DNA of 29,067 bases. It comes from a virus. Below the pieces are notes generated by a model. The model had not been told where the DNA came from, did no database searches, and saw nothing but the letters and a program-made list of their open reading frames with translations. The stretch spans positions 1 to 29,067 of IMG/VR virus record IMGVR_UViG_3300010935_000101. One strand, 5' to 3'. The position numbers and the translations under genes are program-made. This document shows positions 3,891 to 12,635 of this stretch, in pieces; the first letter of the stretch is position 1, and every line of letters begins with the position of its first letter.

Positions 3891-3915
3891 TAGAGCACCA
3901 ATTTTTGGTGTTCTA
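3891..3915 (+). terminator. stem-loop (terminator or processing hairpin)
   Basis: TAGAGCACCA/TGGTGTTCTA just after the stop codon; no clear U-tract. Confidence 0.5.
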
Positions 3916-3938: not shown

Positions 3939-4307
3939 ATGAAGAATGATTTTAAGGTGGGCGATTGGGTAAGGAATATACCTCTTAATAAATTATATAA
4001 AGTAACAGAGTTAACAGAATATTCGATAACTATAACTAAGTGGCAATTTAATCTAACTGACACCGCTTCTCTGAATAGCTTTGAACTTTGGAAACCTAAA
4101 CCATTAGAGTGGTGTTGGTTTAGTAATGGTAATGAGCCTTACTTAAGGCAATACTCACACGGAATTGACAACGGGTTTTATTTTGATATAAACAATGTAC
4201 CATTCAGATTTTGTGAACCTTATATAGGAGAATTGCCCACGTTTATAAAGGAACAACATGACACAAATGATAATCCCAGTAGGACAACAAGTCAACGTAG
4301 AAAATAA
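3939..4307 (+). CDS. hypothetical protein, FKVGDWV...WKPKxxEWCWF paralog family
   Basis: ORF with SD; clear similarity to the C-terminal half of 21285..21872. Confidence 0.75.
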   Translation: MKNDFKVGDWVRNIPLNKLYKVTELTEYSITITKWQFNLTDTASLNSFELWKPKPLEWCWFSNGNEPYLRQYSHGIDNGFYFDINNVPFRFCEPYIGELPTFIKEQHDTNDNPSRTTSQRRK

Positions 4308-4365
4308 ATATGCTTACAATAGGCTGGAGATTAGCAGATTAACAAATTTCTCATACTCACCTTGA
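4258..4365 (+). CDS. possible 35-aa ORF
   Basis: AAAGGAACAAC-ATG context identical to that of the 26828 gene; MTQMIIPVGQQVNVENKYAYNRLEISRLTNFSYSP. Confidence 0.35.
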   Translation: MTQMIIPVGQQVNVENKYAYNRLEISRLTNFSYSP

Positions 4366-4367
4366 GT

Positions 4368-4910
4368 ATAACTGGCGTTCTAGTAATCACATCGTACGAT
4401 AACGAATCCTAAGCGTGGCTTGAGAACTACACAGCCTAACACTAGTAGATAACCCTGTGGATTTAAACTTGCAAAGGGAGAAGCTCGGAGAAAACCCAAG
4501 CACACATGGTTCAGCTTACAGGACCAACACAATATGTAAGTAGCTTGTTTATGGGCTTAAGCCACAATGTCAAATGGCAATTGCGTGGTATGTAAACTAG
4601 GGAACTACCTGAGCCAAAACTACGGGATAGTATCGGGTTTGGCCACTCGTTAGCCGAAGGGCAAATAAATACACAAAATCAGTATAGTTAACTGACGTAT
4701 ACCTATGTGTGAATTGTAGGCAGGTCTGGTATAAGCTACCCATCCTATAAAATGAACAAGCTAGCAGAGACTAACTACCTCTGTACAGTAAACTGCCGTA
4801 AGAAGTTTGCCAGCGATAGTATCAACGGATTTAAACCCGGCACCACACCTCCATGAAGTCAAGACATAAGTATCTTAGTATACTATAGCCAGTTATCTGA
4901 AAGAGGTGTG
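4368..4910 (+). ncRNA. candidate large structured ncRNA (~530-540 nt)
   Basis: terminal helix ATAACTGGC(4368-76)/GCCAGTTAT(4888-96) continued by TAGTA/TACTA; many internal helices; no long ORF; strand inferred from G-U pairs and the flanking genes. Confidence 0.6.
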
Positions 4911-4919
4911 ACTTTATAT

Positions 4920-4995
4920 GTCAAGGATGCATGTGTACACATGGTAGTAATAGGAACAGTCCCCTATGCGGTTCGAATCCGCTCCTTGACCACCA
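4920..4995 (+). ncRNA. tRNA-like element (non-canonical, no assignable anticodon)
   Basis: GTCAAGGA/TCCTTGAC acceptor, GCGG-TTCGAAT-CCGC T arm, ends in ACCA. Confidence 0.7.
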
Positions 4996-4998
4996 TTT

Positions 4999-5126
4999 TA
5001 AGTCTTCGATGAGCACACATTGAAGACAGAGTTAAAACCACTCTGCAGGACTGAGGTTCTTAAAAGAAGTCCTTAATCCAGTTTTACTAGGAAGTGTAAC
5101 CGGACATGTGTGTTCTTCGAAGCTTA
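4999..5126 (+). ncRNA. multibranch structured RNA with a ~20-bp closing stem
   Basis: 4999-5020 pairs with 5106-5126; internal hairpins CAGAGT/ACTCTG and AGGACT/AGTCCT. Confidence 0.55.
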
Positions 5127-5322
5127 TCACTTCAAATGGTTAGCCTAACCGCTAGCCTGCTCTGGTATTATGTAAGCAATACTCGTACCCCGATCCACGA
5201 GAGAGATCGGTACCTTGGTGGTACAAAGGCAATCAAACCACACCCTATGAAACCGATGGTCGAGACAGTTACAGGGTTACGAAACTGTGAACCAGCCCAG
5301 CGATGATAAGCTGGGATACTTA

Positions 5323-5381
5323 TGTTGTAGTGTGGGCACATCTGGAGACCCCAGACGCCAGTTCGATTCTGGAATATGACA
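5323..5381 (+). ncRNA. miniature tRNA-like element
   Basis: TGTTGTA/TATGACA acceptor-like stem, TCTGG/CCAGA arm, CCAG-TTCGATT-CTGG T arm. Confidence 0.55.
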
Positions 5382-5422
5382 CTAGGGTAGCTCCCTTGGA
5401 ACGGCTCTTTAGCGGGAGCCTT

Positions 5423-5508
5423 ATGAACTACCTATCTAGGTCGATAGAGCATCTCCTAACTGAACATTTGGAGTTAGCCTTCAGGTTCGAATCCTGAGTA
5501 GTTCATCA
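5423..5508 (+). ncRNA. tRNA-like element, possibly a diverged tRNA-Phe(GAA)
   Basis: ATGAACTAC/GTAGTTCAT acceptor, CTATC/GATAG D-like arm, CT-GAA-CA loop, TCAGG-TTCGAAT-CCTGA T arm. Confidence 0.6.
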
Positions 5509-5793
5509 TATATAGTTGATACCTAGCGAAGTAGGTATGAAGCAATCTGGCCAGATGGAGCAGACAATAACAATTTTACCGTCTGCTCTAGTGTGGCTAG
5601 TATGTTAGGTTTTGATGCCCACAGAACCATACTATATGCAAGGTGTAAGCTATTACCTATATCAAGTTTAGCAGTGCCTGGTGAGGTAACGTATAATAAT
5701 ACAGAAATGTACATATGGAGCCAGTATAACAAGCCACAGAGATGATAGTTGATATTGACTCTAGTATGTATATATTAATCAAAAGGAAACATT

Positions 5794-6012
5794 ATGAGTA
5801 AAACAACAATATCACAAGCACTTATGGAATTTGATAAGAAATACATAACTCCAGACACAGAGTTTATCCTCACTATACGAGATATAGCAAGAATGTATAA
5901 AACTGTACAGAGGAGAGAAAATGAGAACCTTGCTCTTAGAGCCAAGATTGCTATATTGGAACTAGAAGTTGAACATAATAAAACTAGACCTGAAAGGCTT
6001 ATTTATGGATAA
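5794..6012 (+). CDS. hypothetical protein
   Basis: 72-aa ORF with AAGGA SD. Confidence 0.7.
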   Translation: MSKTTISQALMEFDKKYITPDTEFILTIRDIARMYKTVQRRENENLALRAKIAILELEVEHNKTRPERLIYG

Positions 6013-6202
6013 TTATATGAAGCCAAAAGAAATAGCATACTACTATGAACTAGGCACACTAGGTTCATTTAGTATGACACTAATGGATTTATTTGGAAAA
6101 GCAGATACTGGCAATCAATTTAGACTAGCATCAGCATTTCCAGAATACTATGAAGCGTATCTATTATGGTACAAAAAACCTAAAGGTTGGAAGGACTTTT
6201 AA
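6005..6202 (+). CDS. hypothetical phage protein
   Basis: ATG at 6005 (or 6017) overlapping the upstream gene; GSF...AD..N..RL..AFPE motif. Confidence 0.7.
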   Translation: MDNYMKPKEIAYYYELGTLGSFSMTLMDLFGKADTGNQFRLASAFPEYYEAYLLWYKKPKGWKDF

Positions 6203-10861: not shown

Positions 10862-10884
10862 AGCCCACTTTGGTGGGTTTTGTT
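10862..10884 (+). terminator. probable intrinsic terminator
   Basis: AGCCCAC-TTTG-GTGGGTT followed by a T-rich tail, directly after the vWA gene stop. Confidence 0.55.
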
Positions 10885-10914
10885 AAGATTAACTAAACAA
10901 TTTAAGGAACACCC

Positions 10915-11916
10915 ATGTATACAGTAAAACAAGTAGCAGCAGAAATTGACAAACTTAAACCCAACTTTAAAGAATTTATTGAACTTCTTAAAGATAACGA
11001 CAATAATCTAGAGTCTCATATTTTTAATACTTCAAATATATTCGAACGCTTATTCAAAGCTCAATTAGTGGCAATTACACATACAACACATAATCACTAC
11101 TATGGCAGAGGTGATTTATCAGATAAATTAAATCAATTCCTGATGGAAAATATAATAGATTCTCAAATTAGTAAACACCAATATGGATACAACACTCATA
11201 AACATATAATCACAAATTCATTTTTAGATAATCACATTGCAAAGTATGTAATTAATGTTAAACAATATCTAACACCGTATTTACGGAACAAGGTACGATC
11301 TAAAACAACCACTTTAGCAGAAAAGCAACTGCAACCTAACTTGATGTCTTTGAAGGCATTTGAAGCTTACCTAAAAACTCTTAAAAAAGACATTCCATCA
11401 ACAGTTGCAATTGGGTATTTCAAGCAATTAGAAGAAGCTTCTTTTAATGAATTAAGAGAACAATTTATAGATGCAATTTTTACTAAATGTACGCCTTCTA
11501 TATATCTTCAGAAGAAATTGTCTATATACTTTAATGATATCGTAACATTAACAACTCAAGAAGACAGTAAACTACACAAGTATATGACATTGAATAAATG
11601 CAGTATCAGATTCCTAGCGTATCGACTTAAAATACCTATATCAGAATCTGTACATAATGACAGAGATTCTGAATATAAACCCTTTATAACTAATATATCT
11701 CGCAAAGTTGACACAGATATGAAACAAGTTTCATATCTATTTGGAGCTTTGCTTGTATTAAAGACTTCTAGTGCAATTAAACCTAATCTAGTCTATGACT
11801 TTTTTGTAGAACAATTAACTGAACACTTGAGTCTACCAGAATACAAAACTGTATTGAATGAACTTAAGACTCATTACACAGCAGTGAGTAATGCATTTAA
11901 TACACTAACTATTTAG
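10915..11916 (+). CDS. hypothetical protein (helical)
   Basis: 333-aa ORF with SD. Confidence 0.75.
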   Translation: MYTVKQVAAEIDKLKPNFKEFIELLKDNDNNLESHIFNTSNIFERLFKAQLVAITHTTHNHYYGRGDLSDKLNQFLMENIIDSQISKHQYGYNTHKHIITNSFLDNHIAKYVINVKQYLTPYLRNKVRSKTTTLAEKQLQPNLMSLKAFEAYLKTLKKDIPSTVAIGYFKQLEEASFNELREQFIDAIFTKCTPSIYLQKKLSIYFNDIVTLTTQEDSKLHKYMTLNKCSIRFLAYRLKIPISESVHNDRDSEYKPFITNISRKVDTDMKQVSYLFGALLVLKTSSAIKPNLVYDFFVEQLTEHLSLPEYKTVLNELKTHYTAVSNAFNTLTI

Positions 11917-11924
11917 GAGCAATC

Positions 11925-12635
11925 ATGGATTTATTTAAATACACAGCCTTAGTCAAAGAACTTGAACTGTGTAAAACTGTTACCAGACTTGAGCAATTAG
12001 TGAGACAGTACGAGGATAGATCTCAATCCACAATTTTAGGAAGTTACAGTTCATATAAGTCAAGGTATACTACTGAACAAGAAATACTTATTTACAAACT
12101 TTACACTTTAGCTATTAAATTATTTACTAAGAAGTCAAAACGAATTTTACCTGACTTTATATATTGCAATCAACGTAGGACACAATCTAATTTTTTAAAC
12201 TGTATTCTAAAATGTACAACTACTAGTGTACTCGAAAAGAACAGTCCATTCAAACATGTCCCAACTTATGCACAATTAATGAAGTGGTTTGAGTTTGATA
12301 CTATTTTAAAACTACCCTATTCTGAAGTATACGTGGAACGGCTAAATTCAATTATTGGAGACAACCCAATTCATTTTGAAGTAGATTTCAACAATCAGTT
12401 AGCTCATTTCGATAGATGCTCAACAGTCTTTAAATCAGTAAAACAGGAACTCATCTATGCTATTAGACATAAGCAAGTTAACTTTCCGAATAAACCACAA
12501 ACTATTTGGGATTTGTATATGAAAAATATATTGGAACGACTTGGTGCACCAACTAACGAATCTAATGATGCCCAAATACTCAAACTTGAACAGCAAATAG
12601 AGGCAATTAAGGCAATAGGAAAATACCATGTCTAA
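11925..12635 (+). CDS. hypothetical protein
   Basis: 236-aa ORF with AGGAG SD; N-terminus similar to 16541..17152. Confidence 0.75.
   Translation: MDLFKYTALVKELELCKTVTRLEQLVRQYEDRSQSTILGSYSSYKSRYTTEQEILIYKLYTLAIKLFTKKSKRILPDFIYCNQRRTQSNFLNCILKCTTTSVLEKNSPFKHVPTYAQLMKWFEFDTILKLPYSEVYVERLNSIIGDNPIHFEVDFNNQLAHFDRCSTVFKSVKQELIYAIRHKQVNFPNKPQTIWDLYMKNILERLGAPTNESNDAQILKLEQQIEAIKAIGKYHV

Follow-up and report, generated by a model that had tools for sequence, protein, structure and literature searches.

A conserved RNA core of about 70 nt before a tRNA mimic in a distant N4-like phage, with a possible larger RNA upstream

Background

The tRNA clusters of phages encode stable small RNAs such as RNAC and RNAD of T4, the function of which is unknown (PMC9697503). 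Phage tRNA islands are also a setting of the ROOL and GOLLD RNAs; ROOL has an average length of 581 nt (PMC5737381), and GOLLD combines a conserved 3' part with a variable 5' part (PMC12286853). Theta ribozymes, in turn, act on tRNA 3' trailers (PMC10879173).

The locus described here lies in the 29,067-nt stretch of DNA analysed as a whole (the window), which is the left end of a virus record of 96,760 nt (~97 kb). An earlier note had read positions 4368-4910 as a single ornate RNA of about 530 nt in the ROOL size range, possibly of a new class. Like RNAC and RNAD, the small structured RNA of this locus belongs to the tRNA-type island of a phage and is presumably released from a polycistronic transcript by processing; it differs from them in showing no sequence or model match, in having a non-decoding tRNA mimic as its neighbour, and in a core of about 70 nt that appears to be pseudoknotted. 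ROOL and GOLLD form homo-oligomeric RNA cages. The locus shares with them the phage tRNA-island setting (directly before a tRNA mimic) and, if the whole stretch were one RNA, the size, as well as the conserved 3' and variable 5' layout of GOLLD, but it gives no covariance-model match at E 10, six multistem junctions are not evident, and its body is without a folding signal. Theta and HDV-like ribozymes are similarly small, tRNA-adjacent and phage-borne, and the possible nested double pseudoknot recalls them; here, however, the core lies 5' and not 3' of the tRNA-like gene, has no P3/L3/P1.1 core and has no Rfam match.

Results

The genome codes for a family A DNA polymerase, a primase, an N4-type portal, a terminase and a split virion RNA polymerase, and the top polymerase matches were to Alteromonas phages AD45 (29%); it is therefore a distant N4-like phage. 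The genome's largest non-coding gap contains the proposed RNA in its first 600 nt, in the following setting:

3939-4307, + strand: orphan ORF of 122 aa upstream of the island, probably co-transcribed with it
4308-5793, + strand: gene-free RNA island of 1486 nt (~1.49 kb), recognized by the gap map, by GC (0.42, against 0.35 in the window) and, downstream, by hairpin z-scores
4920-4995, + strand: tRNA mimic with an 8-bp acceptor, a 4-bp T stem, a canonical T loop and an encoded CCA (z -2.6), starting 9 nt past the core helix Pa

The island holds several degenerate tRNA-like elements. Relatives, which we reached via the flanking proteins, have comparable islands of varying content with the same flanking genes on either side, and the closest ones in an AAA ATPase tree have no island at this place, or carry other cassettes. 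Island modules (5209-5317 and others) are common piecemeal to the relatives L178, L244 and L239. The second module, 5209-5317, which is uncatalogued, matches L178:13012-13111 (72% over 76 nt), and 5125-5245 additionally matches L244. More degenerate tRNA-like elements with T-loop motifs were seen at 5340-5395 and 5424-5507, the latter reported by ARAGORN at a relaxed threshold only. The mimic at 4920-4995, which ARAGORN and Rfam both miss, has an 8-nt loop in the anticodon position; it is anticodon-less and non-decoding.

Some further observations concern the relatives. In one of them the AAA ATPase gene is interrupted by a group I intron (L176:14743-15127, 86 bits), and in many members of the cluster this gene is split into pieces of 66-70 aa and 298-332 aa, which suggests a common intron site. 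L129:4790-4900 and L178:10770-10835 are copies of a module at the end of the island. It is a long stem, interrupted by an asymmetric internal loop, that immediately precedes the ribosome-binding site of the next gene, and it was not seen in the window. L132:1645-1700 and L178:13403-13450 have in common a module of about 45 nt located 3' of tRNA-like genes, which shows a weak resemblance to window 4796-4813 (E about 4). Finally, the N4-like relative L177 carries at 5347-6126 a stand-alone reverse transcriptase of 259 aa beside AAA and VWA genes, followed by a 300-nt gap.

A single lineage matched the proposed RNA. It comprises L178-L180, Logan contigs of one phage that we counted as one, and the match was limited to 4841-4917, with nothing before 4841. 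This part of the sequence presents the following elements:

4844-4914, + strand: structured core of about 70 nt, a new motif, with its homologue at L178:12585-12653 (BLAST E 6.6e-7, covariance model, covariation)
4844-51/4903-10, + strand: core helix Pa, 8 bp, with four two-sided changes and one wobble change
4869-73/4880-84, + strand: core hairpin Pb, with two two-sided changes
4856-60/4910-14, + strand: candidate pseudoknot Pc, 5 bp, kept in both copies, with a single G-C to G-U change that lends it weak support

A covariance model built from the window sequence alone recovered the L178 copy at 62 bits. In the two-sequence alignment, Pa and Pb carry six compensatory (two-sided) changes in 13 pairs and no broken pair, and slid controls were 25-58% paired; since there are two independent copies only, this covariation amounts to one event per column. 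Helix 4844-51/4903-10, which the earlier note had drawn across its terminal helix, is thus above chance and covaries with L178. The copy in L178 adopts the same fold, with a z of -3.6, and Pa has a pairing probability of 0.89 in the whole fold of 4310-5000. Pc would tuck in the 3' tail of the core. The single strands hold two invariant blocks, of 15 and 14 nt (27 nt by another count). Simply blocking an end would call for less conservation, and the blocks may therefore hint at a site for a ligand or a protein, or at a catalytic site. The distance from the end of the core to the tRNA-like gene is 9 nt in the window and 7 nt in L178, where the neighbour is a tRNA-like gene with a long insert. 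Moreover, the core of L178 begins about 125 nt past a stop codon and is not preceded by the 470-nt body, and it is therefore independent of the upstream 470 nt.

DNA and RNA-model searches of 65 viral records and of ~3.6 Mb of fetched loci, many of the records being fragments, turned up neither a third copy of the core nor a homologue of the body, and scanning viral, metagenome and genome contigs for patterns produced chance matches only, or none. Judging from the sequence comparison, 4844-4914 is a real, uncatalogued structured RNA motif of about 70 nt, absent from Rfam 15 and known in two copies. In L178 the RNA island is in two halves, separated by the gene of a 530-aa orphan protein (10866-12458) that belongs to no Pfam or PHROG family; an insertion of this ORF into a split copy of the RNA was rejected, as the gap before the ORF gives only matches of E about 2.

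It could be argued that what is conserved is DNA, namely a promoter for the island, and that the upstream 470 nt are a decayed spacer without functional structure. The L178 copy indeed includes an extended -10 at 12620 that is perfect, preceded at a distance of 16 nt by a -35 hexamer matching at 4/6, and the body is unstructured by all statistics (see below). However, in the window copy the aligned -10 has lost its last T, which is essential, and no + strand promoter was found there by the scan, while six compensatory changes over helices of 8 and 5 bp are not expected of a duplex promoter. We regard this explanation as quite unlikely.

Every strand listed in the earlier note is present in the sequence at its stated position, and the pairings that involve sequence upstream of the core include these:

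4368-76/4888-96, + strand: terminal helix Pd, 9 bp, perfect Watson-Crick, crossing Pa, with a possible L178 equivalent at 12573-81/12623-31
4415-24/4556-65, + strand: putative long-range helix of 10 bp with one G-U, at chance level as a class, with a pairing probability of 0.9 or 0.02 depending on the segment folded
4541-52/4752-63, + strand: putative long-range helix of 12 bp with one G-U, pairing probability 0.06-0.92 depending on the segment folded; 14 of 100 shuffles have one
4507-4541, + strand: H-type pseudoknot with stem 1 of 6 bp (4507-12/4521-26), L1 of 1 nt, stem 2 of 7 bp and an A/C-rich L3 of 8 nt

The alternative helix 4540-48/4731-39 (9 bp) also includes one G-U. The strands of the crossing long-range helices of the earlier note can pair as described, but as a set these helices are at chance level in stem counts, stacking energy and greedy folding. 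Long stems were as numerous as in dinucleotide shuffles (p 0.14-0.43), the stacking energies of the stems gave p 0.18-0.76, a greedy fold allowing pseudoknots gave z -0.5, and a perfect 9-bp stem appears somewhere in 45% of the shuffles. Crossing helices of 8-12 bp such as those listed are thus expected by chance in 550 nt. The predicted long-range pairs also flip with the segment folded, the terminal helix having a probability of 0.95 in 4368-4896 versus 0.02 in 4310-5000. Two minor claims fared likewise. The TAGTA/TACTA continuation of the closing helix exists as 5 bp at 4381-85/4881-85, beyond a 4x2 internal loop, but it is probably not real because it competes with the covarying hairpin 4869-73/4880-84; and the 10-mer repeated at 4459 and 4827 is present, but a repeated 10-mer arises in 17% of shuffles.

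The H-type pseudoknot did better. Its geometry was found and is above chance, 1.75% of shuffles having a match (p about 0.02, with a descriptor fitted afterwards and hence post hoc); the descriptor has three sites on the + strand of the 97 kb. It is the sole single-sequence feature above chance, and a search for a homologue of it found none.

The body as a whole gave no folding signal. The MFE z-score was -1.2 for 4368-4896 and -0.25 for 4360-4843, that is, with the 3' core left out, and none of the + strand 120-nt windows in 4360-4900 fell below -1.2, whereas windows further down the island reach -3 to -5.7. As a control, the genuine group I intron of a relative scored -5.4; this control is imperfect, as one coding stretch scored -3.1 as well. 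Large pseudoknotted RNAs can give poor MFE z-scores. Lack of conservation of the long-range pairs was among the findings that the earlier note named as counting against its proposal; the upstream ~470 nt have neither a folding signal nor a detectable homologue in the ~3.6 Mb of fetched loci (roughly 2 Mb of them from related phages). A decayed protein gene was rejected, since there is no + strand frame above 47 codons within 4368-4900. An RNA on the minus strand is unlikely: its z is slightly lower (-1.7), yet the neighbours and the G-U patterns of the core fit the + strand.

Three other observations were made in this part of the island. Perfect palindromic 10-mers occur three times (4391-4400, 4554-4563 and 4876-4885) and would be possible dimer contacts; at least two occur in 12% of shuffles. 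Directly 5' of the terminal helix, 4353-4369 forms a perfect 7-bp hairpin with a 3-nt loop which resembles the N4 vRNAP promoter hairpin in size, although its loop and closing pair depart from the N4 rule. In addition, 4669-4695 has a 27-nt same-sense match (89%) at 80573-80598 of the genome (minus strand), the 3' coding end of a 257-aa gene preceding terL. Both copies can form a small hairpin, and this level of match was reached in 2 of 100 shuffles; it may be an operator decoy or chance.

Of the long-range helices, Pd deserves separate consideration. Its 3' strand lies inside the conserved core, does not overlap Pa and displaces only an invariant 3-bp hairpin. L178 differs at two bases of this strand (4888-89), and both find their complement there in a strand that lies 7 nt 5' of Pa and forms a counterpart helix of 9 bp with two G-U pairs. 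The crossing of Pd and Pa may tentatively be seen as a conserved pseudoknot, the window RNA having a 467-nt insert in a linker that is 7 nt long in L178. From this follows a reading in which about 4368-4919 is one RNA of ~550 nt, with a double-pseudoknot core, in which Pd crosses Pa and to which Pb and Pc also belong, and an ornate insert between Pd and Pa, that is, a new class of large non-coding RNA with a conserved 3' and a variable 5' part as in GOLLD. That core strand 4888-92 is partnered upstream in both copies, with its two variable bases compensated, argues for it, although the shuffle probabilities of 0.075 (window) and 0.013 (L178) are uncorrected for the about 40 windows examined. 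Pd and its counterpart have only five pairs in common and extend in opposite directions, the 5' strand of Pd has local competitors, and a 10-bp upstream helix of L178, stronger than this counterpart, conflicts with the covarying hairpin, which means that matches of such size arise by chance. The near absence of overlap among the three helices tiling 4535-4565, the good geometry of the H-type pseudoknot, the GC of the body (0.42), raised as much as in the rest of the island, and the precedent of GOLLD, conserved 3', variable 5' and near tRNA islands (PMC12286853), are consistent with one RNA; a body without folding signal and without homologue in the ~3.6 Mb is not. On balance we find this reading doubtful.

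The proposed ornate RNA of ~530 nt is thus supported by comparison in its 3' ~70 nt only, where there is real uncatalogued structure, whereas the rest folds no better than shuffled sequence. The whole of 4368-4910 may still belong to a single giant RNA, because Pd may have a compensated short-range counterpart in L178; in that case the RNA would extend to about 4919, beyond the proposed 4896.

Comparison with known RNA families gave no match. Rfam searches of the window, the region and the L178 homologue yielded nothing relevant, with no family at E up to 10 for the region or either copy of the core. A BLAST search with the region had no hit among phage (50,697 records) or plasmid records. The covariance-model check suggested in the earlier note sets the element apart from ROOL, GOLLD, OLE and group I introns: the models of ROOL (RF03087; 574 positions, cut-off 99 bits; E up to 10), of the conserved 3' region of GOLLD (RF02032) and of OLE (RF01071) had no match in the region or in the genome, the genome searches for ROOL and OLE being without a positive control. 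The group I model (RF00028), which scores 86 bits on the intron of the relative, had no match here either. A group I intron or remnant was rejected, as P-, Q-, R- and S-like words (4594-4618, 4764-4773, 4861-4868) came without a consistent P6 or P7, and the region interrupts no gene, with a complete ORF on one side and the intact tRNA mimic on the other. For tmRNA (RF00023) and phage tmRNA mimics there was no tRNA-like tmRNA domain or model match. A tmRNA tag frame 11-13 nt past pk1 and ending Ala-Ala-stop was looked for; the frames after the pseudoknot have 5-18 codons and do not end as a tag would, and the candidate resume codon lies immediately next to the pseudoknot, so a tmRNA or mimic was rejected. 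Twister, hammerhead, pistol and hairpin ribozymes and preQ1-I, compared at the level of their consensus only, were discarded for short word matches, wrong topology and no Rfam match. A conserved structured cassette inside a tRNA-type island, as in the small RNAs of phage tRNA islands, is what was found.

In HDV, about 13-14 nt lie between the two crossing strands. Here there are 36 nt, with no GG for P1.1, and the HDV core is absent, which weakens the case for a new small self-cleaving ribozyme that would cut the island transcript upstream of the tRNA-like gene, theta-like but on the opposite side of the tRNA. Such a ribozyme would account for the long invariant junctions within otherwise covarying helices, might have the nested double pseudoknot and would adjoin a tRNA-like gene, as the phage tRNA-linked HDV-like ribozymes do (PMC10879173). 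Nevertheless, neither copy matches an Rfam ribozyme at E up to 10, and theta ribozymes process 3' trailers, whereas RNase P would already provide a 5' end here. We consider it very improbable.

Discussion

The conservation of the core, its covariation and its position are read directly from the sequences. In the best explanation, the stretch is the head of a polycistronic island of small RNAs and tRNA mimics, the demonstrable unit of which is a pseudoknotted cassette of ~70 nt placed directly before a tRNA-shaped element. The 470 nt upstream would be cargo specific to this lineage, in which one local pseudoknot is credible and the other helices are putative. We hold this explanation as a whole with about even confidence.

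Such an island could work in the following way. There is a terminator-like site at 3891-3915 and the promoter scan of 4308-4900 found no + strand promoter, so the island is probably transcribed by read-through from the upstream genes; between the 122-aa ORF and the core there was likewise no + strand sigma-70 promoter or terminator. Host RNase P would cut at 4920, where the tRNA mimic begins, as expected from its established behaviour on acceptor/T-arm stacks. The cassette would thereby become the 3' end of the upstream transcript, and Pa and Pc may bury this end and block 3'-to-5' decay. This would either produce a stable RNA comparable to RNAC and RNAD of T4 or make the upstream message more stable. 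In MALAT1/mascRNA, cleavage by RNase P at a tRNA-like element leaves the upstream RNA with a 3' end that is protected by a compact fold. The arrangement presumed here would be alike in both respects, as an analogy only, for MALAT1 is eukaryotic, has a triple helix and is unrelated in sequence. In its working, the element would come closest to the stable small RNAs that phage tRNA clusters encode, e.g. T4 RNAC and RNAD.

A bolder model, which we think improbable, is a new, expandable class of phage RNA in which a nested-pseudoknot core of ~85 nt, possibly catalytic, would take up the 467-nt ornate insert in one linker to give an RNA of ~550 nt, the 3' end of which would be made by RNase P cleavage at a tRNA mimic dedicated to it. 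If Pd holds, it would show a large ornate RNA growing by insertion into a small core, which would bear on the origin and role of ROOL and GOLLD. If, as we propose, the core guards an RNase P-made 3' end at the tRNA mimic, this would give a purpose to the non-decoding tRNA look-alikes of phage islands.
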